IMG/VR virus record: IMGVR_UViG_3300031216_000012
Span: 1,845 to 65,844 of that record
DNA from: a virus
Taxonomy: Duplodnaviria; Caudoviricetes
Strand: one strand, 5' to 3'
DNA: 64,000 bases
The position numbers and the translations under genes are program-made. Below the pieces are notes generated by a model, which had not been told where the DNA came from, did no database searches, and saw nothing but the letters and a program-made list of their open reading frames with translations. Shown here one piece after another: positions 39,942 through 57,349 of the stretch (position 1 is its first letter; each line of letters starts with the position of its first letter).

Positions 39942-41797
39942 TTGATGTACCTCTCAGTGATTTTACCTTCGGATGCCAGTGGAATTTTCGGGTTCCAATC
40001 TGGCGGGATTGACATGATTTCTGTCGCGTCGCGCAGGCACTGTTCAGCCTGGTGGTTAGGCACGCACATGATGACCTCATCGTGTACGAGCAGCACAACT
40101 TTGTAGAACCGACTCATCTCGAGCGCGTGGCCGGTAGTGATTGTCCTGCAGCGGCTCTGGATGATGTTCTCAAGCCATGCGCCGCCGTAGAGCTTCTTGG
40201 TGACGGCTTTCCTGTACCGCGGGTGGTAGGCGCGGTAGGTGAACTCTGCCGTGCCGTACTCTCCAATCTCGAGCTGCAGGTCCGGGTACTGCATCGTGAG
40301 CCCGTTGGGCATCAGCACCTTTCCTCCAGGCTGGATGACCAGACCACGAAACTCGATCTCGTGTCGAGCGTCAGGCATCATGTACTGGATCAGGCTCTGC
40401 AGCTGGGACCACGTATCCTTGATCTTGTAATACTTGGCTCGGTACATCTGAACGATGCGCTCAGCTTCATCCATATTCAAGTGAACAGCTGGCCCCATCG
40501 CGCCAGTCTCAAGCATCGATTGGAACTTGAAAGCTCCGCACTGATAGCCCAGACCGAGAATACCGGTCTTGCCGACAAAGCGCTCTTGCCAATTGTCATC
40601 CGCGTTGACTTCGAAACCGTAGAGCTCCGAGGCGAACGATGAGTAGACATCGACGCCTGCCGCGAACTCATCGACCAGATCCCACTGTTCACTGAACACT
40701 GCGTTGTCTCGAGCCTCAATCTGCGAGGCATCGATCACTACGAACGTGTGGCCTTTGGGTGCGGTCAGGCAGGAGCGCAGTCGGCCGTCGCGAGGCAGGT
40801 TCTGAGGATTGAACTGATCGCCGCCAGTAAAGCGGAACGTATGCGCTCCGCAGTAGCCCAGATAGATCGGCAGCGGGTGGCCTGACTTGACAATCATCTT
40901 CTTGGCACGGGTCTCGTTGATGCTGGTCTTGTTCGTGATGCGAGCGTCCATCAGCGAACGGACCCGAGGGTCTTCGTGCTTCATCAGCCGTTGGAACGGC
41001 AGGTCGTTCTTGGCGAACGCGAAGGTATCCTTGCCAGTCGTCGGGCTGACCTTCATCGGCACTTCGACATCGAGCAACTCGAGCAGCTTGGCAAACTGCG
41101 GGTTCGAGCGGACCATCGTGCGGACCTGATCGATCTTCTTGTCAGAGAAGATCTCAGCCAGGGCAGCATCCTTGATCTCTTTCTCCTCGTCGATGATGCG
41201 CCGGGCGCCTTCCTTGTCAATGATAATCGCCGGGTCGGTAAACATGCGGATGGTCAGGTCGATCACGTCGAACTCGAAGCGCGGGAAGCCTCGCGCCATC
41301 AACAGGAACAGCTGCTCGGTCAGCGCGGTGTCCTGGTTGTTGTACCGGCGCATGTCGGCTTGCTGCTCAGGCGTGGCGTCGTCCCAGCGCAGCCCTTCCC
41401 AGCCCTCCAGCACGCCGGAGACCTTACCGTCCAATCCGTAGTAGCCTGCGACGGATTGGAGGCTCGTGGAGCCGTGCTGACCCCACAGCGGCTTGGCCAT
41501 TGCCATTGTGCAGGTGTAGCGGCCGGGGAGGAAGCCGAAGCAGTGGGAGATTGCATAGCCGTCGAACTGCATGTGGTGGCCGTTGAGGATGACCTCACTG
41601 GCGTAAGGCTGAAGATCATCGAAAAACCGGCGGATGTCGTCGCCTACGATGAACTCAGGCTCCGCCATATCGAGCGTCTTCCACGACATTGTCATAACTT
41701 CGAAGTCGGGATGCTGCACGTAGAGGCTGGTGCCGAGCTTCTTGATACTGCACTTCTTGTCGTAGTAGGTTTCGAGGTCAAGCGTGATGAATTTCAT
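39938..41797 (-). CDS. polA: Family A DNA polymerase with 3'-5' exonuclease
   Basis: Exonuclease DLETY; motif A DASQIEAR; motif B RFVGKTGILGLGY; motif C VHDEV. Confidence 0.93.
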   Translation of the reverse strand: MKFITLDLETYYDKKCSIKKLGTSLYVQHPDFEVMTMSWKTLDMAEPEFIVGDDIRRFFDDLQPYASEVILNGHHMQFDGYAISHCFGFLPGRYTCTMAMAKPLWGQHGSTSLQSVAGYYGLDGKVSGVLEGWEGLRWDDATPEQQADMRRYNNQDTALTEQLFLLMARGFPRFEFDVIDLTIRMFTDPAIIIDKEGARRIIDEEKEIKDAALAEIFSDKKIDQVRTMVRSNPQFAKLLELLDVEVPMKVSPTTGKDTFAFAKNDLPFQRLMKHEDPRVRSLMDARITNKTSINETRAKKMIVKSGHPLPIYLGYCGAHTFRFTGGDQFNPQNLPRDGRLRSCLTAPKGHTFVVIDASQIEARDNAVFSEQWDLVDEFAAGVDVYSSFASELYGFEVNADDNWQERFVGKTGILGLGYQCGAFKFQSMLETGAMGPAVHLNMDEAERIVQMYRAKYYKIKDTWSQLQSLIQYMMPDARHEIEFRGLVIQPGGKVLMPNGLTMQYPDLQLEIGEYGTAEFTYRAYHPRYRKAVTKKLYGGAWLENIIQSRCRTITTGHALEMSRFYKVVLLVHDEVIMCVPNHQAEQCLRDATEIMSIPPDWNPKIPLASEGKITERYIK

Positions 41798-42039
41798 TCG
41801 TTGTAAAGTCTCCAAGCGTAGTGAGCAAAAGCCGCTTCGAGTTTATCGTGATACTCAGATCGTGACTCACCCATGTGTTTACAAACGTAGAAAACTTTAC
41901 TGCTCATGTTTTACTCCCCACTCGTACTTAGTAGCTGTATCCATGTCGTGCTCTCCAAATGAATTTACTCAGTGATTCGAGCTTCATGACGATGCTCAGT
42001 GCGAGCCATACAATTTTTACAAAGATCATTTGGTTTCTC

Positions 42040-43306: not shown

Positions 43307-44680
43307 TCATTTCAACATCCTCATCAGTTCGGTCATAGCGTCCAACTTCTCGTTGGTTCGTTCATACATTTGTTCTTCAAGCGTGCCAACGGCGCACACT
43401 CTGATGCTCTCAGTCGCGAGCTTCTGGCCACCGCGGCGAATGCGAGCGTCGCCCTGGACGAGCAGGTCGGCCCGGTCGGTGGGTGAGCACCAGATCGCTG
43501 AAGTGCCCTTGGTAAGCGTCAGGCCGTGTGCGCCCGACTGCGGGTGCATCAGGACGGTCTGGTACTTGCCGGCCTGGTACTCCTGCACGATCGAGCGTCG
43601 GTCAGCATCCTTGGTGTCGGAGCCGATCTCAACGAAGTCGACCTTCTTAGCCGTCAGCGACTCGACGAGCGCTTCGCGCTGGTGGCGCCAGTTCCAGAAC
43701 ACCACGCTGTGCGCACGCCCCAGGATCAGCTCGACAATGAGCTCGTTGCGGCCGCTGTCAAGCGTATAAGCACCGCTGGCGCCGTAGACGCGGCCCGAGG
43801 CCACCTGCAGTAGCTTCTGGCGCAGAGCAGCAGCGTTGACAGCCGTGACGTCGCCCTCTTTGAGCTCGAGCAGGCACTCCTTCTTCATCTCTTCGTAGAG
43901 CTTCATGAGCTTGGCTGACGGACGGTAGTTGAGCACGCGCTTGTCTTGATCTGGAATGTCTTTCATCACGTCGTCGAACTCGTGGCGAACCGTGATGTCG
44001 GCCAAGATCTGAGAGACGCTTTCTTGTGCCTCGGGCTTGTCCTGCCACTTGATCCAGGACGGCTGCATCGGGTTGGTGATGACTGGCTGGCATACGGCGT
44101 CGCGGAATGCGGCAAAGCCTGTACCGAGCCGCTCACCGCCGTCGATGATCAACGTCTGGTGCCAGATGTCAGTGATGCTGGTGCTGGTCGGTGTGGCTGT
44201 CATACCAACTTTGTACTTGAAGTACGGTTCGTTTTTCCGGTGCAGCGGCGTGAGTAAGGCAATCTTTTTAAGCGCCTTAGAGCGCTGCGACGTGCGGTGC
44301 TTGAAGTAGCTGATCTCATCAATGATCAACGTGTCGAACTTTTCGAAGAACGTGCGCTTCTGCTTGGCGATCCACTTGACAGCGTCGGTGTTGGTGATGT
44401 AGATGTCAACGTCGGCATCGAACGCTTTGGCCCGATTGCTGGCGTAGGCCACAGAGAACGTAAGCTGCGGGTGGAACTTGGCGATGTCTTCTCCCCACGC
44501 TGGATCGAGCAGCGCTTTGGGGGCGACGACCAGGGCGCATTTACCGCTGTTCTTGCGACGGAACGCGAAGGCATCAAGTGCGGCCAAGGTCTTGCCGGTG
44601 CCGGCGTCAGACAGGTCAAGAAGAGTCGGTACTTTAAGTTGCTTTTTACTGGTCTGGATTTGATGCGGCCAACGTTTCAC
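43307..44680 (-). CDS. SNF2-family helicase
   Basis: DAGTGKT, VVAPK, IIDEIS, MTATP, HGLTL and Q-x-x-ARI-x-R-x-GQ motifs. Confidence 0.92.
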   Translation of the reverse strand: MKRWPHQIQTSKKQLKVPTLLDLSDAGTGKTLAALDAFAFRRKNSGKCALVVAPKALLDPAWGEDIAKFHPQLTFSVAYASNRAKAFDADVDIYITNTDAVKWIAKQKRTFFEKFDTLIIDEISYFKHRTSQRSKALKKIALLTPLHRKNEPYFKYKVGMTATPTSTSITDIWHQTLIIDGGERLGTGFAAFRDAVCQPVITNPMQPSWIKWQDKPEAQESVSQILADITVRHEFDDVMKDIPDQDKRVLNYRPSAKLMKLYEEMKKECLLELKEGDVTAVNAAALRQKLLQVASGRVYGASGAYTLDSGRNELIVELILGRAHSVVFWNWRHQREALVESLTAKKVDFVEIGSDTKDADRRSIVQEYQAGKYQTVLMHPQSGAHGLTLTKGTSAIWCSPTDRADLLVQGDARIRRGGQKLATESIRVCAVGTLEEQMYERTNEKLDAMTELMRMLK

Positions 44681-46995
44681 TTAACTGCCTCCAGTTGTGC
44701 TTTGTCTTCGATGCCGAACTCTGGCACCTGCCATTTAACCTCCAGCCCGAGCTTGCCGCCGTAGCGTTCGAAGAAGACGCCGTGGTGCTTGAGCATCTGA
44801 ACGAACTTGGGCGTAGTGATTGGGACGGAGTCTCCGCTGACGGTGCGCAATAGAACGTGCAGCGCGTCGCGGCTGATGAAGTGCTTTTCCCCACGCTTGG
44901 CCGCTCTCTGGGCCTCGACGATTGTGCGCGTCGCGTTGTCTACGGCGATGCGGTCGACGTCGTGGCCTTGAGGCGATTGCTGCGTAGGGGCTACGTCGAG
45001 GATGCTCTGCAGGTCGCCCTGCTGCACAGCGCGAAGTACCAGGTGGACTGCAGAGCTGCTGAGCTCGTGCATCAGGTGCTTCTGCTGGCTGACGATCGGG
45101 GTGCGGAGCACTGAATGGTCAATGTTCCATTTGTACAAAATTGAGGTAAAGTCGAACAGTTCGCTTTCGATCGAAGCGATCTCAGCGTCGCTCATAATGA
45201 GCCTTGTCTCTTGATAAGGTGCCACGTTGAAGCGTCTGTCCGTGTCGCTGATTGCGACGGCTGATCGAGCGTTAGACGCTAGTATCAGATTCATGTAGTT
45301 TTTGGCTTCATAGTAATCAGTCCTCATTTTGCGAATTGGAACGACAGGGTCAGTAATGGCTTGCTTGAGCTTGGCCATCGGCTTGCTGTTCGCGTCAAGT
45401 TGTTTCTGCTCTGTTTCGTCGAGCATGAGAATGACGCAATCCTCCATGAATGAGTTGAAGTTTTCGTTGAGCGCTGACATCAACGTGACGTTGACGTAGT
45501 TGTTCCCGATAATAGGTTTTAGGATGTTGTGAATCAAAAGTCCTTTGCCTGTTCCTTCGCAGCCGCTCAGCACCCAAGCCGTTTCAGTTCTTCGCCGTTT
45601 CTGAACAATGAACGCTAACCAGTTCAAGAACCGCTTGACGACGTCCATGTCGTCTCCGAGCGCTGACTTGAGGATCTTGGCTATGGTAGGAGGGAACTGT
45701 CCTGGCGAGGGGTTGAGCCTCGCATCGCGAAGGTACGGGGACTCATAGAAGCGATTAAGAAATCGCTCTTCTGGTACACACACGCGGTTATCATCGAAGC
45801 GGAACACGTAGTCCCACTCTTCCACAAACTCCCCGACCCACTGGTTGTGTTGTCGGAGGAAGTCTTCGAGCTTTTTGACAGCGCTGGTGGCATAAATGTC
45901 CAAGTTGGTTGTTTCGGGTTCGAAGGTGCCGCGGTAGTATACGTCCGAGCGGCGGTCGAGGAACGCAAGGTAAACGGTGTCTTGATCTTTAACGCCTTCT
46001 TGCTGAAGCTTTTTGTAATTCTTGTAATACTCAGGGACAATCTCTTTGGTGAGGTAGTTGGGCTCACCTTTGAAATTGAACAGGATCTCCGGGTTCTCAA
46101 GCGGGTGGTAGTAGCCCCAGCTGTCTCCGCCATTGAGGTTCAGGTACATGAAGCCCCGGCCTTGTTTGTAGCCAGTGACTGATACCACCCCTGGCTTGCT
46201 GACGACTTCGATACCACTGATCAGCTTGGTGTTAAACGTGCGGTGCTTGAGCCCTTTCTTTTTGCGAAGCTCAGAGAGCTTGGTATTCTTCTTTTCCTCA
46301 ATAACTGCCGAGTCAATTTGAGCAAGCTGCTCTTTGAGATTGACCTTATCGTTTTCTTTTCTTACAAGACGGAGGCGATCTTCAGTAGGAACTGGGTCGT
46401 CCATCCCCACGCACTCGGGAGGTGCGATGTAGATCAACATGCCGTTGTGGGCAACAGCAACGTCGAGAGGCCATTGAAGCGCCGCGTTACTGCGTGTCAA
46501 ACTGATCGATTTTTCAAACTCAGACAATGTCAGGTTCTGGTTCATCAACCAGTATTTCAACGTCTCTGGCAACACTTCGTGTTCGAGCATGAAATAGAGG
46601 TGCGCAGAAAACGGCTTATCTATCTTGTGGCCGGCGCCGTACTGCACGATGTAAGAGACGTCGCTCAGGCCCATTTGGGAAAGTAGCGAGTTGACCTGGT
46701 CTTCTGATTTGAGGTAGTCAAAGTCTAAACAAATCCAAGATGTAGGTGCCATTGGGTCTGTTTCAGAAGCCCTCGATTCTAATACCAAGTCTCGTTTAAG
46801 TTCGCCTTTAAGAAGGCAATGCCCGTTTCTGCTGTGATAACGCAAAGCGCTCAGCATCTGATCGAGTGTGTGGACTTGTTCGCGATGAGACGTGACGTGC
46901 TTGACCATCGGGTAGGCATCTTTCTTGACGCCTTCGTCAGTCTGAGTGTACGTTTTGACCAGCGGAACGCGGGCTTCAAGAAAATGAAGCTCCAT
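44677..46995 (-). CDS. Primase-helicase with a C-terminal DUF5906/SF3-like NTPase
   Basis: N-terminal CLDFD and SAHLYF (AEP-like); Walker A GCEGTGKG, MLDE, ASN and DRRF. Confidence 0.85.
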   Translation of the reverse strand: MELHFLEARVPLVKTYTQTDEGVKKDAYPMVKHVTSHREQVHTLDQMLSALRYHSRNGHCLLKGELKRDLVLESRASETDPMAPTSWICLDFDYLKSEDQVNSLLSQMGLSDVSYIVQYGAGHKIDKPFSAHLYFMLEHEVLPETLKYWLMNQNLTLSEFEKSISLTRSNAALQWPLDVAVAHNGMLIYIAPPECVGMDDPVPTEDRLRLVRKENDKVNLKEQLAQIDSAVIEEKKNTKLSELRKKKGLKHRTFNTKLISGIEVVSKPGVVSVTGYKQGRGFMYLNLNGGDSWGYYHPLENPEILFNFKGEPNYLTKEIVPEYYKNYKKLQQEGVKDQDTVYLAFLDRRSDVYYRGTFEPETTNLDIYATSAVKKLEDFLRQHNQWVGEFVEEWDYVFRFDDNRVCVPEERFLNRFYESPYLRDARLNPSPGQFPPTIAKILKSALGDDMDVVKRFLNWLAFIVQKRRRTETAWVLSGCEGTGKGLLIHNILKPIIGNNYVNVTLMSALNENFNSFMEDCVILMLDETEQKQLDANSKPMAKLKQAITDPVVPIRKMRTDYYEAKNYMNLILASNARSAVAISDTDRRFNVAPYQETRLIMSDAEIASIESELFDFTSILYKWNIDHSVLRTPIVSQQKHLMHELSSSAVHLVLRAVQQGDLQSILDVAPTQQSPQGHDVDRIAVDNATRTIVEAQRAAKRGEKHFISRDALHVLLRTVSGDSVPITTPKFVQMLKHHGVFFERYGGKLGLEVKWQVPEFGIEDKAQLEAVK

Positions 46996-47638: not shown

Positions 47639-47988
47639 CGAACTACGACCTCCTCTCCGTTCTCGCTGAGGGCGCGTAGGGGGAATTTTGGGACAGTTGG
47701 TTTCCAAAGCACCCCGTCGATACTGATCCAGCATTCATCGCAGCAAATGAACTCGAGGCCATTATCCATGCTTTTAAAAGCCCGATACCCCGAATCCCAA
47801 GCCTCTAGGTGGCTGTGATAAAGCGTCGGCTCCAGCTTGGTATCACGCTGCCGGACGAACATTCCTTTTCCTGGTCCTGTCATCGTTTCTTTCTCCTGCT
47901 GTGGTGTATTCAGCGCGATGGTCTCGGCTGCGTTTAGCTCGTCAAGTTTCGCCTCGGTGCCTACCGGGTGGACCTCGAAGTCAGTCAT
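47635..47988 (-). CDS. Hypothetical protein
   Basis: ATGA overlap with the upstream repeat gene. Confidence 0.55.
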   Translation of the reverse strand: MTDFEVHPVGTEAKLDELNAAETIALNTPQQEKETMTGPGKGMFVRQRDTKLEPTLYHSHLEAWDSGYRAFKSMDNGLEFICCDECWISIDGVLWKPTVPKFPLRALSENGEEVVVR

Positions 47989-48431
47989 GATTCACCCCAC
48001 TCTATGATGGTTTTTCCGTCTTCGTGGCTGATCCGCACACCAGACGCGAATATTTCTAGGCGGCAAGGCGATTTCCATTTGGTATGCGGCAATTTTCGCC
48101 CTTGTCTTTCTACGTATTCAGCAATCAACTTATCAGGCGGACAGAGAGGCCGGTTTGCCATCACCCGTTCTTTGTCGGCTGGACTAAGTCCAGTCAAGTC
48201 GATCGGACAGTCAGGCCGTTTAGCCATCACCCGTGCTCGGTCGTATGAATCAAGTCCAGTCAAGTCGATCGGACAATCCGACCGGTTTGCCATCACCCGT
48301 GCTCGGTTGTATGGACTAAGTCCAGTCAAGTCGATCGGACAGTCAGGCCTGTTGATCATCACCCATGCTCGGTCGTATGAATCAAGTTCAGTCAGGTCGA
48401 TCGCTCGCCCGTCTTCATTTGACGTTGTCAT
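47985..48431 (-). CDS. 22-aa repeat protein (4 units plus a unique C-terminus)
   Basis: RPDCPIDLTGLxxxxRARVMxN units. Confidence 0.75.
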   Translation of the reverse strand: MTTSNEDGRAIDLTELDSYDRAWVMINRPDCPIDLTGLSPYNRARVMANRSDCPIDLTGLDSYDRARVMAKRPDCPIDLTGLSPADKERVMANRPLCPPDKLIAEYVERQGRKLPHTKWKSPCRLEIFASGVRISHEDGKTIIEWGES

Positions 48432-49575
48432 TTTATCTCCTCGAGTTCATTGTCAATTGGACAATCCGACCGGTTTGCCATCACCAGTTCTTTGTCGGTT
48501 GGACCAAGTCCAGTAAGGTCGATCGGACAGTCTGACCGGTTTGCCATAACCCGTGCTCGGTGATGTGACTCAAGTTCAGTCAGGTCGATCGGACAGTCAG
48601 GCCTGTTGATCATCACCCGTTCTTTGTCGGCTGGATCAAGTCCAGTCAAGTCGATCGGACAGTCAGGCCTGTATGCCATTACCCATGATCGGTCACCTGA
48701 ATCAAATCCAGTCAAGTCGATCGGACAGTCGGGCCTGTTGATCATCACCCGCGCTCTGTCGGTTGGACCAAGTCCAGTAAGGTCGATCGGACAGTCTGAC
48801 CGGTTTGCCATAACCCGTGCTCGGTGATGTGACTCAAGTCCAGTCAGGTCGATCGGACAGTCAGGCCTGTTGATCATCACCCGTACTCGGTCGTATGAAT
48901 CAAGTCCAGTCAAGTCGATCGGACAGTCAGGCCTGTATGCCATTACCCATGATCGGTCAGATGGATCAAGTTCAGTCAGGTCGATCGGACAGTCGGGCCT
49001 GTTGATCATCACCCGCGCTCTGTCACGTGAATCAAGTCCAGTCAAGTCGATCGGACAGTCAGGCCTGTCGATCATCAACCATGATCGGTCGTATGAATCA
49101 AGTCCAGTCAAGTCGATCTCTTCGTGGTTTAAAGTTGTCATTTTATCTCCTCGAGTTCATTGTCAATTGGACAGTCGGGCCTGTTGATCCTCACCAGTTC
49201 TTTGCCTGCTGGACCAAGTCCAGTAAGGTCGATCGGACAGTCGGGCCTGTTGATCATCACCCGTGCTCGGCGCCATGAATTGAGTCCAGTCAAGTCGATC
49301 GGACAGTCAGGCCTGTTGATCATCACCCGTGCTCGGTCGTATGAATCAAGTCCAGTCAAGTCGATCGGGCAGTCAGGCCTGTTGATCATCACCCGTGCTC
49401 GGTCAGATGGATCAAGTTCAGTCAGGTCGATCGGACAGTCTGACCGGTTTGCCATAACCCGTGCTCGGTGATGTGACTCAAGTCCAGTCAAGTCGATCGG
49501 ACAGTCTGACCGGTTTGCCATAACCCGTGCTCGGTGATGTGACTCAAGTTCAGTCAGGTCGATCGGACAATCTGG
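48150..49575. repeat. 66-bp coding tandem repeat array spanning three genes
   Basis: agtccagtcaagtcgatcggacagtc-type cores recur every 66 bp within each gene. Confidence 0.95.
48428..49141 (-). CDS. 22-aa repeat protein (10 units)
   Basis: In-frame 66-bp repeats; GGAG RBS and ATGA coupling. Confidence 0.8.
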   Translation of the reverse strand: MTTLNHEEIDLTGLDSYDRSWLMIDRPDCPIDLTGLDSRDRARVMINRPDCPIDLTELDPSDRSWVMAYRPDCPIDLTGLDSYDRVRVMINRPDCPIDLTGLESHHRARVMANRSDCPIDLTGLGPTDRARVMINRPDCPIDLTGFDSGDRSWVMAYRPDCPIDLTGLDPADKERVMINRPDCPIDLTELESHHRARVMANRSDCPIDLTGLGPTDKELVMANRSDCPIDNELEEIK

Positions 49576-49722
49576 GAAATGAGTCATAGCCCAGACAGCC
49601 CAATCAGGTCTGTGTCCTACTAACTCTGTCCAAGTTCTGGGCTGCTCACGAAGCCACTCAATAGCTTTTAAGGAAGCTTGTTCTTTAACAGCTTGTTTAA
49701 TCATCTTATTTGTGATTCTCAT
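49138..49722 (-). CDS. 22-aa repeat protein (N-terminal cap plus 6 units)
   Basis: N-terminus nearly identical to that of 56918..57349. Confidence 0.8.
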   Translation of the reverse strand: MRITNKMIKQAVKEQASLKAIEWLREQPRTWTELVGHRPDWAVWAMTHFPDCPIDLTELESHHRARVMANRSDCPIDLTGLESHHRARVMANRSDCPIDLTELDPSDRARVMINRPDCPIDLTGLDSYDRARVMINRPDCPIDLTGLNSWRRARVMINRPDCPIDLTGLGPAGKELVRINRPDCPIDNELEEIK

Positions 49723-49727
49723 GGTGG

Positions 49728-50015
49728 TTATTCTTCTGCAAGTCGGTGGACTTCTTCTTGGACAAGGTCTTTATACCGTTCAATAATTATCGGGCGGCTA
49801 AGCGTCGTTCCACCTCTGTCTAGTGGATACCCCGGCTGGACCTTGAAGCGCCCATTGCCAATATTTTCCACCAGCTCCGCGCCATAATCGCCGCCGTATA
49901 CCGCGTTTACTACGGCGCTCAATTCCATTCTTCTGGGCGGGTTTGGTAGATTGTTACTTGAGATAGTAGCGAATGGTGAATTTTCGTTCATGTGAAACAG
50001 TTTATAAGTTCCCAT
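49728..50015 (-). CDS. Hypothetical protein
   Basis: TAATG coupling and GGAG RBS. Confidence 0.55.
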   Translation of the reverse strand: MGTYKLFHMNENSPFATISSNNLPNPPRRMELSAVVNAVYGGDYGAELVENIGNGRFKVQPGYPLDRGGTTLSRPIIIERYKDLVQEEVHRLAEE

Positions 50016-50737
50016 TATGTCAACTCCTCGATGTCTGCGGGCTGGTAGCTGACGCTGCTGACCGGCTCCATGAAATGTACAGCTTTGACGGTGTCCAAGT
50101 CAACGTGGTCTGCAATGCCGTTGGTCTTGTAGTCGCGGCCGTAAAAGCCCCAGCAGGAGAGGTCGCTATCGACTTCCTCGCCGTGCTCGTCGACCAGAAC
50201 GAAGCCGTACACATCGCCGGTGAGGTACTGGTCGTACATCTCAACTTCGCGGCGCAGAATAGCTTCGATGTGCTTTTCAAGCGTGTCATGACCGTGTGCG
50301 GGGTACTCCGACGTAAACTCGCGCTCTACCTCATCCCGACGCACGTAGATGAATCCGACCTGTCCCGAGTCCCACGAACAAGTGAATGCTCCGGTGCTCA
50401 TGGTGATGCCACTATGGTCGTAAAGATATAGCGGCAGCGAGATGTAGAAATGGTCGAACATGCGGCCAGTAAACTCGTTGCACTGTTCTTCGATGTGATC
50501 CCCGTCTTGGGTCAGCGTATACAGGTAGTCAGCGTACTGCTTGAGCCAATCCTCAAAGTCAGGCTCCATCTCGCACACCAGGTTGATGCGGTGTTCTTGT
50601 GGATCGCCAAGAGGCTGCTTGTCACCGAGGATGTAGCGGCCATGCCAGCAGGCCATCGTGCCGAGGTTGTCCCATTCACGAGGTGACTCGGGTGAGCTGT
50701 CTCGGAATATTTGAAGGGTGTGGATGCGTTGGGTCAT
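50015..50737 (-). CDS. Acidic hypothetical protein of a phage/mobile-element family
   Basis: SPREWDNLG...LPLYLYDHSG...WDSGQVGFIY...YLTGDVYG...SCWGFYG. Confidence 0.7.
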   Translation of the reverse strand: MTQRIHTLQIFRDSSPESPREWDNLGTMACWHGRYILGDKQPLGDPQEHRINLVCEMEPDFEDWLKQYADYLYTLTQDGDHIEEQCNEFTGRMFDHFYISLPLYLYDHSGITMSTGAFTCSWDSGQVGFIYVRRDEVEREFTSEYPAHGHDTLEKHIEAILRREVEMYDQYLTGDVYGFVLVDEHGEEVDSDLSCWGFYGRDYKTNGIADHVDLDTVKAVHFMEPVSSVSYQPADIEELT

Positions 50738-50970
50738 TGTTCTGGTCTCCAAAAGCGAAAGCCCTTCAGCAGTTGTCTGCCACGCTGAAGGAATGTGGTG
50801 TGGCTACCGTCGATCTTGGCCCAGTAAGCCATCACGTTCTTACACTGCACACAGGCCGCTTTGGGGTCTTGGCCTTGGCTAACGTGCATGTCGTAGAGCT
50901 TATGGGCTTGCTCGATAATCTTGGCCGGGTACTTTTTACGTCGGCCGTAGCGGGTGAGTTGGGATTTCAT
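50734..50970 (-). CDS. Hypothetical protein
   Basis: AGGAG RBS. Confidence 0.55.
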   Translation of the reverse strand: MKSQLTRYGRRKKYPAKIIEQAHKLYDMHVSQGQDPKAACVQCKNVMAYWAKIDGSHTTFLQRGRQLLKGFRFWRPEQ

Positions 50971-50992
50971 GTCGTAGTCTCCTGATGGACAT

Positions 50993-51024
50993 AAAAAAAC
51001 CCCAGACCGCGAACGGCCTGGGGC
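50993..51024 (-). terminator. Rho-independent terminator
   Basis: Minus strand ccccagg...ctgggg followed by T7. Confidence 0.8.
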
Positions 51025-51072
51025 AAAAAGCTGGCTAGGAGTGTCTGAAGTACAGCCAGCTTGAGGGAGTCG

Positions 51073-51852
51073 TTAGATGGTAGCAGATTCCTCCTCCTCG
51101 CGCTCAGCGACTTCGTCGGGCTGAGGTGTACGTCCGCCCCAGAGCATCTCGCGGGTCGTGTTCTGAGCGGCGCGGCGGTGCGGACCGGAACTCTGGTTGT
51201 TCTGCAGGCTCCACGCTGCGAGGTTGAGGCACTGATCGACGCCGCGGGTGATGTTGACAGTGGCCCCGGAGTCTTCGCACCAGTCGAGGACACTGGCAAT
51301 CTTCAGCGCCTGGTTACGGCTCGCTTCGAGGTTATAGAGCGAGGACTCAGCGGCATCCTCGTTGCCGTTGTTCTGATAACGCTCCACGTTGCGGGCGTGG
51401 ATGTCGACCCAGCGAATAGCGCCAGCCAGCTGCTGAGCGTACTGCGGAGCCAGGTTGTAGGCGAGCGACGAGCCGCCCAGGAACTGGTTGGACCGGCCCA
51501 GGTTCGCTACGAGGGAGTCAAGAATCTTGTTGAGCTTGGTGTCTGTCTCGACCTCTTCCTCGCGGAACTCGCGAGCGCCGAAGAACTCAGCGGTAAGCTC
51601 AGTCAGGTCTCGGACGCTCTCCATCGTCGGCTTGATGCGCAGTTCGCGCTTGCCGTTGACCGTGACGTGCATCCAGCGGAAGCCTGGGGGCAGCTGGATC
51701 TTGGTCTGGCGCTGCTCTTCGAGCAGGTTCTCAGCGGCCTCTGTCGCTTCGCGGTCGTCGCGCTGGCCCGCATCGCGCTGGTGCTGTGCACTGATTTCGT
51801 TGAAAGGGGCGGTGCCGGCTGATGTTGGTGGATTGAGTGCTGCGTTGTTCAT
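51073..51852 (-). CDS. Hypothetical protein, probably highly expressed
   Basis: 259 aa with strong codon bias, GGAG RBS and its own terminator. Confidence 0.7.
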   Translation of the reverse strand: MNNAALNPPTSAGTAPFNEISAQHQRDAGQRDDREATEAAENLLEEQRQTKIQLPPGFRWMHVTVNGKRELRIKPTMESVRDLTELTAEFFGAREFREEEVETDTKLNKILDSLVANLGRSNQFLGGSSLAYNLAPQYAQQLAGAIRWVDIHARNVERYQNNGNEDAAESSLYNLEASRNQALKIASVLDWCEDSGATVNITRGVDQCLNLAAWSLQNNQSSGPHRRAAQNTTREMLWGGRTPQPDEVAEREEEESATI

Positions 51853-51916
51853 AGATATTCTCCGTAAATTCTAAATGACGGTTCAAAAGCGAACCACTAA
51901 CTCGCATGAGACCAGA

Positions 51917-52378
51917 TCAGACAGATTCACCGTCTGATCTGCGTATGCCCTTCTCCGCTGCTGACAAAAACAGAGGAGTGGCCACGTCTACGAGCGTTTG
52001 GATTGCATTTATAGCGGCCGATAATTTTTCAGGGTTCTGTTTCAAGTCTTGTTCGATAGACCGCACAAACAAGGCCGTGTCAAAATGGAGTGCTTTGACT
52101 TTTTGCAGTGCTGAAATTAAGTCAGGACCAAAAGTAGACGTGTCTTCCTGTATTTTTACAACGCTTCCTGTTTCGAGGTCGGCGCGGGTAGCAAAACACC
52201 ATCCTTTGACGTTATCTTCGCGTGGAAGTTCGCCGCGCCATAAAACGTCACGGCTCCAAGCGTTGCCGTTTTCGTCAACGTGATGACACGTTGCGCCTTC
52301 TGGTGGAACTGATAAATCCGCAGATTCCATTATCTCTAACTTAGCAGCCTTGTACTTTTCGTTTACTTCAAAGTTCAT
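51917..52378 (-). CDS. Hypothetical protein
   Basis: AGGAG RBS; ends inside a cagatcagac/gtctgatctg hairpin (51912-51940). Confidence 0.55.
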   Translation of the reverse strand: MNFEVNEKYKAAKLEIMESADLSVPPEGATCHHVDENGNAWSRDVLWRGELPREDNVKGWCFATRADLETGSVVKIQEDTSTFGPDLISALQKVKALHFDTALFVRSIEQDLKQNPEKLSAAINAIQTLVDVATPLFLSAAEKGIRRSDGESV

Positions 52379-52393
52379 CCGTGATCTCCTTGG

Positions 52394-52726
52394 TCATTTC
52401 CTTCTCCAGATTGGTGGAATAGCGACCCAGACGAACCGGGTCTTGAGGACCGTGGCTGTGCCTTGGGCAACACGGCCGCGGTGGATCATGGGCTTGTCAT
52501 ACCCGAAGAGAACTTTCGAGATCCACAGCATGCCACTGAAGATCAGCCCTCCGAATACTGCAGCGATCATGCCGCCGAGTGTCCCGGCGAACATGAGCAT
52601 GAGGGCCACTGTTACGGCGATGTCTAGGTAGAGGTCAAGCCCTAATAGTTTGGAACGTAGGCTCTTGGGTGTCTTGAGCAGCAGGACATACAGGGCAGTT
52701 GCACTCATTAGTCCGATAAAAACCAT
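52394..52726 (-). CDS. Membrane protein
   Basis: ATG at 52726 after AGGAG; three hydrophobic segments. Confidence 0.6.
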   Translation of the reverse strand: MVFIGLMSATALYVLLLKTPKSLRSKLLGLDLYLDIAVTVALMLMFAGTLGGMIAAVFGGLIFSGMLWISKVLFGYDKPMIHRGRVAQGTATVLKTRFVWVAIPPIWRRK

Positions 52727-52907
52727 TTGAATCTCCTTCAAGTAGTGCAAATAAAGTAAAGTAAGCGAGTAAAATTAAAACGGCTACGCTTGCTGTATAG
52801 ACGTACATAGGAAAGTTATAAAACTTCTCGCATACTCGATCGAGTAGGTACATACTGAAAGCAAATCCTATAACGACTCCAATTAAATAAAGTGCGAGTT
52901 TTAACAT
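52635..52907 (-). CDS. AT-rich small membrane protein
   Basis: AGGAG RBS; two hydrophobic segments. Confidence 0.45.
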   Translation of the reverse strand: MLKLALYLIGVVIGFAFSMYLLDRVCEKFYNFPMYVYTASVAVLILLAYFTLFALLEGDSNGFYRTNECNCPVCPAAQDTQEPTFQTIRA

Positions 52908-52912
52908 TTTAT

Positions 52913-53809
52913 TTACTCCTTTGTGAATTTGGAAAACGATGCTTTGCCAGTAAGTTCGGTCAGAGGAATTTTGTCGTTATTTCCAGGCGTTAAAGTTACG
53001 CCTTCATTGTCAATCGGACAGTCAGGCCGTTTAGCCATCACCCGCGCTCGGTTGTATGGACTAAGTCCAGTCAAGTCGATCGTGTACCACGAACTGTCCA
53101 TGTCGGTGTCTTCGACGAGAATGACGGCGCCAGACTGGAGTTCAGAAGGTGATGCAACAAACCAGCCATTGTCGCCACTGTTTACACCAGCGTATCCAAA
53201 CCTAGACACTTTTTTTACTGTAAATGTGTCGTTGAGTTTTGGGCTAATTTCTTGGCCAGGGGGGCAGTAATTATTGTAGTCTGTGGGGATCTCGAAGTTG
53301 TACCAATCTACGACGCGGTAAGTTTTTCCTATTTCGTATCCCATGACATTGTCTTTTTGTGGCTCGCTGAAGTCGAACCTCGAAGCTGTCCAGTCGATGT
53401 TATTGAGGAAGGGGATGAACCGGGGGTTTGGGTGGCTGCGTTCGTAGGAGGAATCTACTCGAGCGCAACACCAAGAATTACTGCTGCGCTTAGGCAGACT
53501 ATCGAACTTAAACCATGTATCGTCTCCATCTTTCGCAACGAAGCGATGAGAGCCAGTCAGCGCAACTTCGAATGCCTTCTCAACGAGCCTCTTGATGACT
53601 GGCGAGTCTTTATGCACGGCGTAGTTGTGTCTGAGGTCGGAGAATCCGTATCCGTAAGAGCGTACTAGACAGCGCCATTCGGTTAATGTCGGGCTCCAGT
53701 ACATAATGTTGCCTGCATAGGTCGATATGGTGTTGTCCGGTAGCGAGTTGAGCAGCTCGCCCGATCCGACGTAGATGTAGTCGGCAGGTAATTTAGTAGT
53801 GCCCATCAT
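52913..53809 (-). CDS. Mosaic hypothetical protein carrying one 22-aa repeat unit
   Basis: IDLTGLSPYNRARVMAKRPDCPIDNE near the C-terminus. Confidence 0.6.
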   Translation of the reverse strand: MMGTTKLPADYIYVGSGELLNSLPDNTISTYAGNIMYWSPTLTEWRCLVRSYGYGFSDLRHNYAVHKDSPVIKRLVEKAFEVALTGSHRFVAKDGDDTWFKFDSLPKRSSNSWCCARVDSSYERSHPNPRFIPFLNNIDWTASRFDFSEPQKDNVMGYEIGKTYRVVDWYNFEIPTDYNNYCPPGQEISPKLNDTFTVKKVSRFGYAGVNSGDNGWFVASPSELQSGAVILVEDTDMDSSWYTIDLTGLSPYNRARVMAKRPDCPIDNEGVTLTPGNNDKIPLTELTGKASFSKFTKE

Positions 53810-53991
53810 TTATCTCCGTGCATTTTGTTAAGGTGACGTTCTACGTTATCTAACGTGCCGTTCCGGCCGGTAGGATAGGCAGGGCGCTTTTTTGTCGCGC
53901 TGCCTTGTTTCAACGTCATCTGAGCGTACGCTGCAGCAATACGTTGGTCTCTTTTGGTGTGGCCAGGATGTATTGTTCTGCGCTTGGGCAT
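53806..53991 (-). CDS. Small basic hypothetical protein
   Basis: AGGAG RBS. Confidence 0.5.
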   Translation of the reverse strand: MPKRRTIHPGHTKRDQRIAAAYAQMTLKQGSATKKRPAYPTGRNGTLDNVERHLNKMHGDK

Positions 53992-54028
53992 GTCGTTTCT
54001 CCTTAGATGAATTGGTTGTTTACGTTGT

Positions 54029-54436
54029 TCATTTGGACTCCTCGAATACTACTCCAGGGTTAGCGCGGATGAACGCCGCGATCTCGGGCCATGTTGCCCC
54101 CCCGTCGTTGGCGTCTGAAAGGGTTTGTACTCCTTTGGCTGGGCCGACTTTAAGTTCTTTGTCGTCTTGAAAGTTTCCAAGAGGCCCCCGAAGCCCTAAT
54201 GCTTCGAAAGCGTCGTCTGCTAATTCGCTACGGTCGCCATTGACCAGATAGGTGTGGGCGTGTTTTGGCTGCTCGTTGCCCCACTGGCCTATACCGGCGA
54301 TAATGGCCGCTTCGCCCAAGCAGCAGGCTTGGTAGCTGCCGTCTCCATTCTTTTTAGCGAGCTGTCTGATGCACTGACGCTCTGCGTTCTGCTCTAGCGA
54401 CTGGAGCCAGCGTTCTTGTAATGGCCCGATTTTCAT
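54029..54436 (-). CDS. Hypothetical protein
   Basis: WL-x-x-L...CCLG...L-x-x-AND-x-G-x-TW-x-EIA-x-FI pattern; AGGAG RBS. Confidence 0.65.
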   Translation of the reverse strand: MKIGPLQERWLQSLEQNAERQCIRQLAKKNGDGSYQACCLGEAAIIAGIGQWGNEQPKHAHTYLVNGDRSELADDAFEALGLRGPLGNFQDDKELKVGPAKGVQTLSDANDGGATWPEIAAFIRANPGVVFEESK

Positions 54437-54491
54437 GTTGTTTCTCCTTAGATGAATTGGTTGTAGGCGCGGATCATGTTGTTCACGTTGT

Positions 54492-54535
54492 TCATTTGGA
54501 TTCCTCGAATACTACTTCAACGGTCCGATTTTTAT
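54492..54535 (-). pseudogene. Internally deleted remnant of a 54029..54436 paralogue
   Basis: ATA AAA ATC GGA CCG TTG (cf. MKIGPL) is joined to GTAGTATTCGAGGAATCCAAATGA (cf. VVFEESK*), behind its own AGGAG. Confidence 0.7.
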
Positions 54536-54656
54536 GATGTGTTCTCCTTGTTAAAGACACAAACCCACATTGATCCTGAATAAACAGATCCACCGTTTAT
54601 TCAGAGGAAGCGAGCACTTCGTTTCCATACCGAAACAAATCAACAGACGTTTCTCC

Positions 54657-55460
54657 TTAGTCAGTGAGCCAAGTGGCGAAATCTTCTTGCGCATCGTACT
54701 CGGCAGGGGATGCGACGATCTGCGATCGATGCTGGTTGAATGCTTCGAACCAGTACGGATCGCGAGAATGTTCGGGCCAGGGCACCCGTCGCTGCGCGAG
54801 GGCCATCTGGATACGGTTGGTTTCATTGGCCAGTTTAGGGATAAGGTGGGTGAGCTCGAGGTCGAGCCCCATCCGGCGGGCCAGGATGTGATAGTTCCAC
54901 ATGCCGGCCGTGCGGCCACCGCCGCGCCATCGACAGTGCTCCGGCTCCCAGGTGATCTTGGAGGTCTGGGGGTGGAACCAGCACAGGTCTGACCAGTGGA
55001 ATCGTTGGATTTGGTGCATGAAATAGTTATAGCCTTGCGTACCGTTTTCTTGGAGCTGCTTGCTCGGCTGAGTGTCGGCATTGTAATTGGAATAGAACTT
55101 GAGAATCTCTACTGCAGCGTTGCCGTGGGACGGATAAAAGAATACTGGGCCTGGTGGTGGTTTGCGGTATTTCAGAGTGTAGATGATGTCGAAAATGCAC
55201 GTTGGATGTTCGTGCTGATTACGCGACAAGAGCTTATTGATGTCGACAAACCACGGTTGAGGACCGAGTTCTTTGTAAAGAGGATGCACTCGAGAGTGGA
55301 GTTTGTGCATACCGCTACGTTGCGATGTGTAGATTGAGTTCATGAATGGAAGGCGTTCAGTACGAGAATAAAGTACGCCTTTGTGCGGTGCATAGATGAA
55401 ATACTTGTTCAACGTGGTGTATGAAGGGAGGCAAGTTGTTGATTGTGAACGTGTTTTCAT
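54657..55460 (-). CDS. Hypothetical protein next to the putative origin
   Basis: 267-aa ORF, aromatic- and His-rich. Confidence 0.55.
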   Translation of the reverse strand: MKTRSQSTTCLPSYTTLNKYFIYAPHKGVLYSRTERLPFMNSIYTSQRSGMHKLHSRVHPLYKELGPQPWFVDINKLLSRNQHEHPTCIFDIIYTLKYRKPPPGPVFFYPSHGNAAVEILKFYSNYNADTQPSKQLQENGTQGYNYFMHQIQRFHWSDLCWFHPQTSKITWEPEHCRWRGGGRTAGMWNYHILARRMGLDLELTHLIPKLANETNRIQMALAQRRVPWPEHSRDPYWFEAFNQHRSQIVASPAEYDAQEDFATWLTD

Positions 55461-55471
55461 GGTTATACCTG

Positions 55472-55801
55472 GCTGGTTTTACATGAGTAATGCTAAGTGC
55501 TTGAAAGTATACAGGAAATACGGGGCATATCAGTGCATCTGAGCAGTTTTTTGAAAGTTGGTTTTACATGAGTAATTTCAAAACGCTGTAAGTTGTTGTT
55601 TTTATTATTATTATATATATATACTATACTAATATATACTATTAAACTTTAAAAAGTGGCTTTTTCAACTACGAGTTTTTCATTATCTCTCAACCACCAT
55701 TGTTCCCTGAATTGAAAAAGCGCGTTTTTACAACATAGCACCCCCTGCGCACCTTATCCCATTGATTTATAAGTACTAAACATTACTCATGTAAAACCAG
55801 C
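55472..55801. other. Putative replication origin: AT-rich core bracketed by 21-bp inverted repeats
   Basis: gctggttttacatgagtaatg (55472-55492) and its exact reverse complement (55781-55801); a third partial direct copy at 55559-55576; AT-rich tract near 55600-55650. Confidence 0.6.
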
Positions 55802-55871
55802 AACCACGAAAGCTAAGGAAATCAATAACTTAGCTTGCCACCCGCAAGTGGCGTACCAAACCTGACACCGG

Positions 55872-55983
55872 CTGGTTGCAACTGACTGGTTGCGCTTTGT
55901 TGCCACTGACTGGTTGCAACTGACTGGTTGCAACTGACTGGTTGCGCTTTGTTGTCATTGACTGGTTGCAACTGACTGGTTGC
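55872..55983. repeat. Iteron-like tandem repeats (ctggttgc x7)
   Basis: Cores at 55872, 55886, 55910, 55924, 55938, 55962 and 55976 (spacing 14 or 24 bp). Confidence 0.9.
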
Positions 55984-56035
55984 AAAAACGGTGTTCCCCT
56001 CGAACCCCACGCTGCGCGCCGCGCTCTCGGCCTCC

Positions 56036-56179
56036 GGCATAGTAGTAAGTTGGCCGTAGCACCCTTTGCAGGGCCGGCGGGTGGGCGAGGTGCGCAGCAC
56101 GAGTCTACCCTGAAGGCCCAGGGGGCATAGTAGTAAGTTGGGCGTAGCACGAGTCTACCCTGAAGGCCCAGGGGGCATA
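56036..56179. repeat. Non-coding repeat units bounded by ggcatagtagt/aagttgg
   Basis: ggcatagtagtaagttgg at 56036 and 56124; 34-bp direct repeat at 56096-56129 and 56146-56179. Confidence 0.85.
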
Positions 56180-56211
56180 AAAAAAGCCCCTGAGCCCGAA
56201 GGCCCAGAGGC
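56179..56211 (-). terminator. Rho-independent terminator of the first early operon
   Basis: Imperfect GC-rich stem followed by T7 on the minus strand. Confidence 0.7.
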
Positions 56212-56217
56212 GGTGAG

Positions 56218-56418
56218 TTACTTGCGTTGTCTCTCCTGCTTATTCCACTCGGCAATGTCGTCGAGTAGCTTGGGATCGCACATCTTGGTAGAGCGCGGGA
56301 TGCGAGTAGCCCACCAGGCACCACCAGCAGCTGCGCCGGCCAAGAGACCGACGAGTGGGAAGATTGCTCCCACTACGAAGGCGGCGATGATGTAGACGCT
56401 TGCCTTATTGCCGTTCAT
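56218..56418 (-). CDS. Small membrane protein
   Basis: MNGNKASVYIIAAFVVGAIFPLVGLLAG...; ATGA coupling. Confidence 0.5.
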   Translation of the reverse strand: MNGNKASVYIIAAFVVGAIFPLVGLLAGAAAGGAWWATRIPRSTKMCDPKLLDDIAEWNKQERQRK

Positions 56419-56567
56419 GAGCGAGCGACCATATACCCGCCGCCGAGCACTGATAATGCCCAGGGGGTGAGCCATACTGGGCTGATGAACGTCCCGGCAA
56501 GAACCGAGGCGACTGGGATGGCTGCCCATGCAAGCCATGTGAGTTTGTACTTGGCGATCTCGCTCAT
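56415..56567 (-). CDS. Small membrane protein (50 aa, below the ORF-track cutoff)
   Basis: MSEIAKYKLTWLAWAAIPVASVLAGTFISPVWLTPWALSVLGGGYMVARS*; AGGAG RBS and ATGA overlaps at both ends. Confidence 0.55.
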   Translation of the reverse strand: MSEIAKYKLTWLAWAAIPVASVLAGTFISPVWLTPWALSVLGGGYMVARS

Positions 56568-56719
56568 GATTTCTCCTTTGCAGCCTTGGCGACTGCGCTT
56601 GCAATGAGGGCGTCGAGTGCCGCGCGGCGGGCGCGACGTTGTTCGATCTTGGCCTGGGCGCCGTTCAAAGCCGCTTTGATGTCGGCGAGAGTAGGAACGG
56701 TAAGGATGATCTTACGCAT
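56564..56719 (-). CDS. Small helical protein
   Basis: MRKIILTVPTLADIK... after GGAG. Confidence 0.55.
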   Translation of the reverse strand: MRKIILTVPTLADIKAALNGAQAKIEQRRARRAALDALIASAVAKAAKEKS

Positions 56720-56861
56720 AGTAGTTCTCCAGTGCAGTGTGAAGTGAACCTCCGAAGAGGTGGAATGTGGTGCGCTCGGCAGCGGCTGCGTGCCAGGCTT
56801 TGATGAAGCGGGAGACCGGGTTGCCTTGGTCGTCGATGTAGTTGACTGTGAAAGTGCACAT
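56712..56861 (-). CDS. Small hypothetical protein (49 aa)
   Basis: MCTFTVNYIDDQGNPVSRF...YYA*, starting from the AGGAG/ATG inside the 73-bp repeat. Confidence 0.55.
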   Translation of the reverse strand: MCTFTVNYIDDQGNPVSRFIKAWHAAAAERTTFHLFGGSLHTALENYYA

Positions 56862-56931
56862 GATGTACTCCTAAGTTGGTAGAGCCGCTTACCGGGATTG
56901 GCAGGCGGCATAGTAGTTCATGCTCCGTAGA
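56859..56931. repeat. 73-bp direct repeat, copy 1 (stop + hairpin + RBS + start)
   Basis: One mismatch against 57347-57419. Confidence 0.95.
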
Positions 56932-57349
56932 CGTCGGGCCGGTTTGCCCTAACCTCCGCTCGGTCACCTGAATAAAGTCCGGTCAAGTCGACCGGACATC
57001 CAGGCCTTTCTATCATCACTCGTGCTCGGTCACCTGAATCAAGCCCAGTCAAGTCAACTGGGCAGTCAGGCCTTTCTATCATCACTCGTGCTCGGTCGTA
57101 TGGACAAAGTCCATCTAAGTCAATCTGACAGTCAGGCCTGTCGATCATTACCCATGATCGGCCCCCTGAATCAAGTCCGGTCAAGTCGATCGGGCAATCT
57201 GGGATATGAGTCATAGCCCAGACAGCCCAACCAGGTCTGTGTCCTACTAACTCTGTCCAAGTTCTGGGCTGCTCACGAAGCCACTCAATAGCTTCTAAGC
57301 AAGCTTGTTTTTTAACAGCTTGTTTAATCATATTATTTGTGATTCTCAT
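56918..57349 (-). CDS. 22-aa repeat protein (N-terminal cap plus 4 units)
   Basis: Paralogue of 49138..49722, flanked by the 73-bp direct repeats. Confidence 0.8.
   Translation of the reverse strand: MRITNNMIKQAVKKQACLEAIEWLREQPRTWTELVGHRPGWAVWAMTHIPDCPIDLTGLDSGGRSWVMIDRPDCQIDLDGLCPYDRARVMIERPDCPVDLTGLDSGDRARVMIERPGCPVDLTGLYSGDRAEVRANRPDVYGA

Follow-up and report, generated by a model that had tools for sequence, protein, structure and literature searches.

A family of phage repeat proteins related to LRV

Five genes on the minus strand of a 64,000-nucleotide stretch of DNA from a tailed, uncultured phage (hereafter the window; bases 1845-65844 of the 65.8-kb IMG/VR record IMGVR_UViG_3300031216_000012, rated 91% complete) encode proteins built from tandem units of 22 residues. 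Sequence comparisons identify this unit as a shorter relative of the repeat called Leucine-Rich-repeat Variant (LRV, PF01816; structure 1LRV), which is of the HEAT-like helical-solenoid type. We propose that the five genes, termed A to E (Table 1), constitute a multigene family of the phage that encodes small, acidic proteins of helical-solenoid build, the best guess at whose function, and in our judgement the probable one, is the binding of host proteins early in infection. The unit is written here as IDLTGL-xxxx-R-xx-VM-xx-RPDCP, with one variable slot of four residues and two of two residues, and its positions are numbered from the R of RPDCP. An earlier note on this DNA had described the repeat without being able to assign it to a named family; it can now be named an LRV offshoot, via the link to the protein P0040.

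A phmmer search with the gene C protein against 1.84 billion representative proteins yielded 79 matches at E<=1e-3, the majority of them small metagenomic proteins consisting of an N-terminal head domain followed by three to four units. A name is now available for the set of metagenomic 'hypothetical proteins' represented by the 35 matches at E<=1e-10. The more distant matches include P0040, aligned over the repeats with an E-value of 9.9e-11, and P0047, aligned best over the head with an E-value of 2.9e-9. Both are true LRV proteins, scoring 181.4 and 52.9 bits on PF01816, respectively. In addition, P0040 matches the solved chain 1lrv_A ('leucine-rich repeat variant') with an E-value of 1.3e-6, and also scores 46.4 bits on the HEAT model. 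Alignment of the gene B protein with P0040 by BLASTP gave an E-value of 2e-21 and proceeds unit for unit, with gaps of a few residues, located in the four-residue slot or beside it, in nearly every window unit. Comparison by the program hhalign of a 26-row profile of three consecutive units against an 11-row LRV profile, the printed rows of which all come from P0040, revealed a probability of 95.9% and an E-value of 6.3e-9.

Other searches added little to the assignment. Pfam and PHROGs returned only sub-threshold noise for the five proteins, and a profile of the family alignment A1 against the PDB sequences did not find 1lrv, giving one chance-level match to ribosomal protein L23. Weak rows for Fn3_Dep-1_6th (PF24950) recur below the cut-off, with E-values of 0.014-0.023 for window proteins and 9.5e-5 for P0013, and 24% of the members of one structural neighbour cluster in the ESM Atlas carry this domain; it is an unexplained lead. 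A literature search at listing level gave nothing relevant on LRV in phages, PF01816, the early genes of the Pseudomonas phage KPP25, or HEAT repeats in combination with anti-defence.

Repeat units and gene architecture

The motif is present in five minus-strand open reading frames (ORFs), at the coordinates previously given for them. The earlier note had claimed four repeat genes and one fused unit with about 25 units in total, and a script counted 25 full units, with 4, 10, 6, 4 and 1 in genes A, B, C, D and E, respectively. The arrays finish in a cut-off unit that ends right past RPDCPI. The note had recognized the repeat correctly, starting the unit at RPDCPIDLTGL, which places the register five residues off: because the first units are without RPDCP and the arrays stop directly after RPDCP, the unit is better started at IDLTGL. 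Tandem Repeats Finder detected 66-bp arrays at 48138-49118 (15.0 copies), 49162-49569 (6.2 copies) and 56958-57187 (3.5 copies).

The scaffold was found to be nearly invariant, as had been stated: Asp7 and Leu8 occur in all 25 units, and Thr9, Leu11 and Val19 in 24 of them. The 25 units contain 14 distinct four-residue slots, comprising the 12 types listed before and two that had been overlooked, SPAD and DSGG. ESHH..AN units recur four times as described (B5, B9, C1 and C2), and the order in gene C is ESHH, ESHH, DPSD, DSYD, NSWR, GPAG. The single full unit of gene E is of the type SPYN..AK, with the ruler unit counted from residue 239 and the motif from residue 244. The suggestion that KE-type units come last like a cap holds only partly and only locally in the window: three of the four K16-E17 units are terminal, whereas B8 is internal and gene D ends in R-AE, and the arrays read in related phages end without KE units.

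Apart from the repeats the five proteins differ in their termini (Table 1). The product of gene A is identical to the protein P0001, and genes B and C have their C-terminal tail in common. The N-terminal part of the gene E protein has no family match in Pfam or PHROGs and gave no lead in the ESM Atlas. The gene B protein is acidic, with an isoelectric point (pI) of 4.52 and 47 Asp and Glu versus 28 Lys and Arg residues; the other proteins have pI values of 5.15-6.08. The conserved residues Asp3 and Asp7 return every 22 residues.

The head domain

The 48-residue head of genes C and D shows the pattern AC-x-EAL-x-WL...PRTW-x-EL, belongs to no Pfam family, and aligns to the N-terminus of P0060 with 45% identity over 65 residues. 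In P0060 and P0061 the head is followed by repeats that score above the LRV cut-off of 21.6 bits (35 and 22.7 bits, respectively), and P0047 has three heads with LRV-like repeats after each. In P0041 and P0082, moreover, the fusion partner of the head is a pentapeptide-repeat array. The head thus occurs with three kinds of array, namely the 22-residue units, true LRV repeats and pentapeptide repeats, and may serve generally as the module with which solenoid arrays start. A search with the head alone (residues 1-52) returned no word-sharing candidates, and a search for longer proteins returned P0013 only.

A pentapeptide-repeat protein is also found in KPP25, where ORF032 (L007 2738-3814) is located in the corresponding early region, with the primase about 10 kb downstream of it. 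It is a different solenoid at a similar genomic place, and no head motif was seen in its translation by eye.

Predicted fold and position of the variable residues

The AlphaFold2 model of the gene D protein, built from the 17-sequence alignment A1, has a predicted local distance difference test score (pLDDT) of 96.0 and a predicted template modelling score (pTM) of 0.85. It shows the four helices of the head followed by helices of 10 residues at 61-70, 83-92, 105-114 and 127-136, and no strands of three or more residues. The modelled repeat helix corresponds to unit positions 13-22, one per unit, whereas the rest of the unit, a conserved 12-residue connector RPDCPIDLTGL-x, is neither helix nor strand in the model. 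A single-sequence AlphaFold2 model of gene C, which displayed strands at a pLDDT of 56.6, was discarded in favour of the alignment-based model. A structure search of the ESM Atlas, using the Atlas's own model of gene D, gave HEAT-repeat clusters as five of the 10 matches listed, with template modelling scores of 0.54-0.57 by query; a feature match to 'YdhT_N' scored 0.84, below the usable level.

Among the 25 units of the window, the entropy is highest at positions 14 (2.69 bits), 12 (2.22), 15 (1.60) and 22 (1.54) and is zero at Asp7 and Leu8. Other contigs show this pattern as well: a set of 188 units from 20 metagenome stretches gave the highest values at positions 14, 18, 22, 12, 21 and 15 (3.57, 3.19, 3.16, 2.72, 2.63 and 2.30 bits, respectively) and low values at positions 16, 19, 20 and 17 (0.05, 0.20, 0.80 and 0.94 bits), where the pattern used to collect the set constrained positions 6-11, 16 and 19 and left 12-15, 17, 18 and 20-22 free. 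The hypervariable positions 14 and 18 include the aromatic residues Trp, Tyr and Phe in these metagenome units. Within the predicted helix the entropy has its best periodicity at 95-100° per residue, which is alpha-helical, and for the metagenome set the helical moment was reached by 275 of 20,000 shuffles. Since the entropy follows this periodicity, the variable residues 14, 18, 21 and 22, together with 12 and 15, are predicted to share one side of the helix, opposite to Arg16, Val19 and Met20. The earlier note had likened the repeats to families with a constant scaffold and a variable surface, and the model, a helical solenoid of high confidence, agrees with this; that the variable slots share one face, which the note had proposed to check on a predicted structure, is supported by the helix limits and the periodicity.

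The selection acting on the units was estimated by a crude Nei-Gojobori calculation of the proportions of non-synonymous (pN) and synonymous (pS) differences over 20 core units of the 25, with the first units of the five genes excluded. The scaffold has a pS of 0.325 and a pN of 0.072, resulting in a ratio of 0.22 (bootstrap 0.15-0.30). For the slots the pS is 0.282 and the pN 0.359, resulting in a ratio of 1.27 (bootstrap 1.04-1.59), a value inflated by the fact that the slot columns were picked for their variability and based on unit pairs that are not independent. Inclusion of all 25 units gave ratios of 1.24 for the slots and 0.37 for the scaffold. The ratio, for which the note had proposed a per-position calculation, is higher in the slots than in the scaffold. 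Purifying selection holds the scaffold under strong constraint, whereas the slots are unconstrained or mildly diversifying; positive selection is not proven.

The 4-nt overlaps of start and stop codons chain genes C, B, A and an ORF of 117 residues behind them, which was unmatched in PHROGs, the sole library searched for it. Because of these overlaps and the low pN/pS of the scaffold, the minus-strand frame is the coding one. Long antisense frames of up to 182 residues run over the arrays on the plus strand (e.g. 47968-48516); they are repeat by-products, with a risk of being miscalled as genes.

How the arrays change

Most pairs of units differ by 10-25 of their 66 nt, and therefore the arrays are mostly old rather than young. 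More recent similarity is seen at several places. Gene B contains a duplication of four units (Table 1), and the other offsets in its array show about 76% identity. Exact tracts cross the unit borders for 83 nt between B9/B10 and B5/B6, for 78 nt between B9/B10 and C1/C2, and for 67 nt between B5/B6 and C2/C3. Units B4 and C4 differ by 2 nt and the neighbouring units by 10-12 nt. The heads of genes C and D are nearly identical at a distance of 7.6 kb, whereas each unit of their arrays differs at 13-25 of its 66 nt. The arrays thus grow and change as their 66-bp repeats undergo duplication, gene conversion and unequal crossing-over. The shuffling of units that the earlier note had read from the sequence is therefore confirmed in the form of segmental duplication and exchange between genes, but it amounts to ordinary unequal recombination and gene conversion in arrays that are for the most part old. 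The longest exact internal repeat is 83 nt, and the four-unit duplication in gene B could for this reason be a mis-joining in the short-read assembly.

A diversity-generating retroelement (DGR) was rejected as the source of the variation, as a search for reverse transcriptase (PF00078), aimed at no other dedicated diversifier, gave no match in the 65.8-kb record and was positive in three control genomes. The repeat genes resemble DGR targets in that the variation of a phage gene is focused in few codons; in the window, however, the variation is found between paralogous units and not between a template and a variable copy.

Distribution of the family

Relatives were found with a degenerate DNA pattern for the core motif. 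The family occurs as tandem sets in three other IMG/VR virus records, and in addition in one contig filed under a Patescibacteria metagenome-assembled genome (L029, SCSZ01000034.1), in which two tandem headless repeat genes adjoin phage-like and recombination-type genes. This contig may be viral sequence binned into the bacterial genome, and therefore it is no evidence on the host. The 20 metagenome stretches hold 45 unit-bearing open frames, with at least two such frames in 14 of the stretches, and the contigs vary from one to five or more genes and from two to 11 units. The identity of the metagenome contigs to the window arrays does not exceed 76%, and a search for related loci with gene C as query found none.

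Two of the viral relatives are informative on gene order. G002 has a primase 70% identical to that of the window, and its repeat genes lie directly upstream of the primase as they do in the window; the contig ends within an array. G001 is complete with terminal repeats and has three members of the family between a divergent region and its own primase/helicase gene, and the window primase as query found no match in it. The two otherwise different phages G001 and the window virus have a phrog_6186 gene in common, to which no role is assigned and which stands among the repeat genes in both (window 50015-50752, minus strand, E 1.5e-30; L027 10241-10933 of G001, minus strand, E 9.6e-20).

Proposed function and alternatives

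In the mechanism that we propose, each unit contributes one predicted 10-residue helix (positions 13-22) and a 12-residue connector. The conserved side of the helix, together with Cys4, Ile6 and Leu8, would pack the core, and the stacked variable sides would form one continuous exposed strip that serves as the binding surface. The genes would be expressed early, because they lie upstream of the primase, helicase and polymerase genes on the same strand. During takeover each paralogue might have a host protein of its own as binding partner, which may be a defence protein. Binding of host proteins is suggested by the fold class, the exposed variable strip, the habit of occurring in several copies of variable length, and the genomic position.

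Several results weigh against this assignment or leave it less firm. The Pfam LRV model (gathering cut-off 21.6 bits) misses all five window proteins at E<=1, and with the whole record translated in six frames it still gave no match at E<=10; the window family is too diverged for this model. The predicted fold, very confident as it is, was unmatched by Foldseek at E<=0.001 in either the PDB, for which 1lrv was absent from the six rows returned, or BFVD. The placement of the variable residues on one face relies on predicted helix limits and periodicity, and in the window's own 25 units the periodicity is weak, with 1357 of 20,000 shuffles reaching the observed moment. The slot ratio of pN to pS is inflated as described above. 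Searches of the window proteins with PADLOC and NCBIfam gave no significant match, and neither tblastn with the low-complexity filter on nor megablast found a match in 50,697 deposited phage records; among these searches the tblastn, PADLOC and NCBIfam results speak against the proposal. Homology is uninformative on the target, because LRV repeats have a solved structure but, to our knowledge, no established function.

A stronger form of host-protein binding would regard the family as a natural binder library carried by the phage, in which each paralogue neutralises a different host defence or takeover target and unequal recombination quickly re-assorts the specificities. We consider this form rather unlikely. 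If true, the family would stand beside the designed repeat binders as their LRV-based counterpart and would provide the first function for LRV-type repeats.

The position of the genes admits another explanation, namely that the proteins are scaffold or accessory factors of phage replication that bind primase, helicase or polymerase, with the slot variation being neutral drift on an exposed surface. In the window and in G002 the primase comes directly downstream of the repeat genes, in G001 these lie upstream of the primase/helicase gene, and the slot ratio of 1.27 is near neutral once the choice of columns is allowed for. However, G001 bears the family together with a different type of primase, the L029 genes are headless and stand next to recombination-type genes, and the wide range in copy number (1 to at least 5) and in units (2-11) is unusual for a fixed part of the replisome. 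A replication role is unlikely in our view.

The composition of the proteins raises the question of nucleic acid. Pentapeptide-repeat DNA mimics are known, and by analogy the window proteins could be acidic rods that imitate nucleic acid, or could bind it, and in either way block DNA-targeting enzymes of the host. The acidic pI values of gene B and of the other proteins would fit, as would the regular return of Asp3 and Asp7 and the fusion of the same head to pentapeptide repeats in P0041 and P0082. The hypervariable Trp, Tyr and Phe at positions 14 and 18, however, fit protein recognition better than uniform mimicry, and we regard this explanation as quite improbable.

The repeats could also be selfish elements, or act at the DNA level, for example as iterons or as hot spots of recombination, with open frames that are incidental; we consider this very improbable. 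Both strands are open over the arrays (the 182-residue plus-strand frame), and metagenome contigs often break in or near arrays, G002 ending inside one. Against this, the scaffold, read in the minus-strand frame, has a pN/pS of 0.22 at a pS of 0.33, contigs whose DNA is at most 76% identical to that of the window retain the protein motif, a high-confidence fold is predicted from 17 diverse sequences, and the genes are chained by start/stop overlaps.

Binding of host proteins thus remains the function that we favour. The family makes the question of what LRV-type solenoids bind a tractable one, and across about 190 natural units its scaffold and variable positions are set apart unusually cleanly. 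It may be a source of phage factors for counter-defence or takeover, and possibly of a small natural scaffold for engineered binders.

Genomic setting

The plus strand of the window encodes the terminase large subunit, the portal, the major head protein and a virion protein of 2989 residues (22097-31066), of which just the last ~400 residues match the virion structural family phrog_30152 (E 6.6e-46). The minus strand, read leftward between about 57.8 and about 33 kb, first carries small genes without an assigned role and then the replication genes. The nearest cultured phages are Pseudomonas phages of the KPP25/phiR18 type, with a primase just 36.6% identical. No tRNA genes were found, and an Rfam search of the window gave no matches.

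Gene D is the second gene in the first leftward transcription unit, and two strong terminator-like hairpins divide the leftward genes (Table 1). A scan for sigma-70 promoters was uninformative, giving 6 sites compared with 7.0 expected. Downstream of a strong minus-strand terminator lies a gap of about 730 nt without apparent gene (55460-56186). It contains a motif of about 37 nt twice, near 56176-56140 and 56126-56090, about eight iteron-like copies of a 14-nt unit (Tandem Repeats Finder 55872-55985, with periods of 24 and 52 also scored), and an AT-rich stretch near 55600-55660. By its appearance the gap could be an origin of replication or a regulatory hub.

Table 1. Positions of the repeat genes and neighbouring features in the window.
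Feature	Position	Strand	Remarks
Gene A, 148 aa	47985-48431	minus	4 units, then unrelated ~55-aa C-terminal extension
Gene B, 237 aa	48428-49141	minus	10 units, headless, tail NELEEIK; start overlaps gene C stop by 4 nt
Gene C, 194 aa	49138-49722	minus	48-aa four-helix head, 6 units, cut-off unit, tail NELEEIK
Gene D, 143 aa	56918-57349	minus	head and 4 units
Gene E, 298 aa	52913-53809	minus	unrelated ~243-aa N-terminal part, one full unit, cut-off unit, tail
Four-unit duplication in gene B	48473-49000	minus	B7-B10 (48473-48736) vs B3-B6 (48737-49000), 244/264 nt identical
Head-coding part of gene D	57206-57349	minus	139/144 nt identical to gene C head (49579-49722)
ORF, 117 aa	47635-47988	minus	start overlaps gene A stop by 4 nt
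Primase	44677-46995	minus	
Helicase	43307-44680	minus	
DNA polymerase	39938-41815	minus	
Terminator-like hairpin, strong	56186-56211	minus	11 pairs, 8 G-C, T-run; closes first leftward unit holding gene D
Terminator-like hairpin, strong	50999-51024	minus	separates gene E block from block of genes C, B, A

Comparison with known repeat systems

In having a constant scaffold and, in each unit, a few positions for specificity, the family is reminiscent of TALE and PPR proteins. Those consist, however, of two-helix units of 33-35 residues that read nucleic-acid bases, and the window proteins have no sequence or family match to them. The classical leucine-rich repeat (LRR), including the bacterial type of 20-22 residues, is similar in unit length and in the logic of a modular binder. 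It was ruled out, as the confident model is strandless, the LxxLxLxxN motif is absent and no LRR family matched.

Likeness in the predicted structure is seen to the HEAT and PBS-lyase HEAT repeats and to alphaRep, the designed binders built on HEAT-like repeats, which are likewise helical solenoids with a conserved core and a few hypervariable positions on one helix face. The HEAT unit differs in comprising roughly 31-47 residues and two antiparallel helices, compared with one predicted 10-residue helix per 22 residues in the window, and the Pfam HEAT models gave no match to the window proteins.

LRV repeats have a period of 24 residues and form a right-handed superhelix of alternating alpha- and 3-10 helices, as in 1LRV of Azotobacter vinelandii. 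The window family and LRV share a core of a charged residue, a valine and a hydrophobic residue, followed by x-P-x-C/x-P-x-x-L, and in P0047, P0060 and P0061 true LRV arrays follow the N-terminal head that is also that of genes C and D. Both are all-helical solenoids, the window family according to its model. The period of the window family is 22 residues (66 bp), whereas the anchors of P0040 are 24-27 residues apart, and the deletion in the window units falls in or next to the segment that matches the variable four-residue slot. The family thus appears to be a compact version of LRV, with 22 residues and one alpha-helix per unit, that differs from LRV in being phage-borne, multi-copy and, as predicted, hypervariable on one face of the helix.

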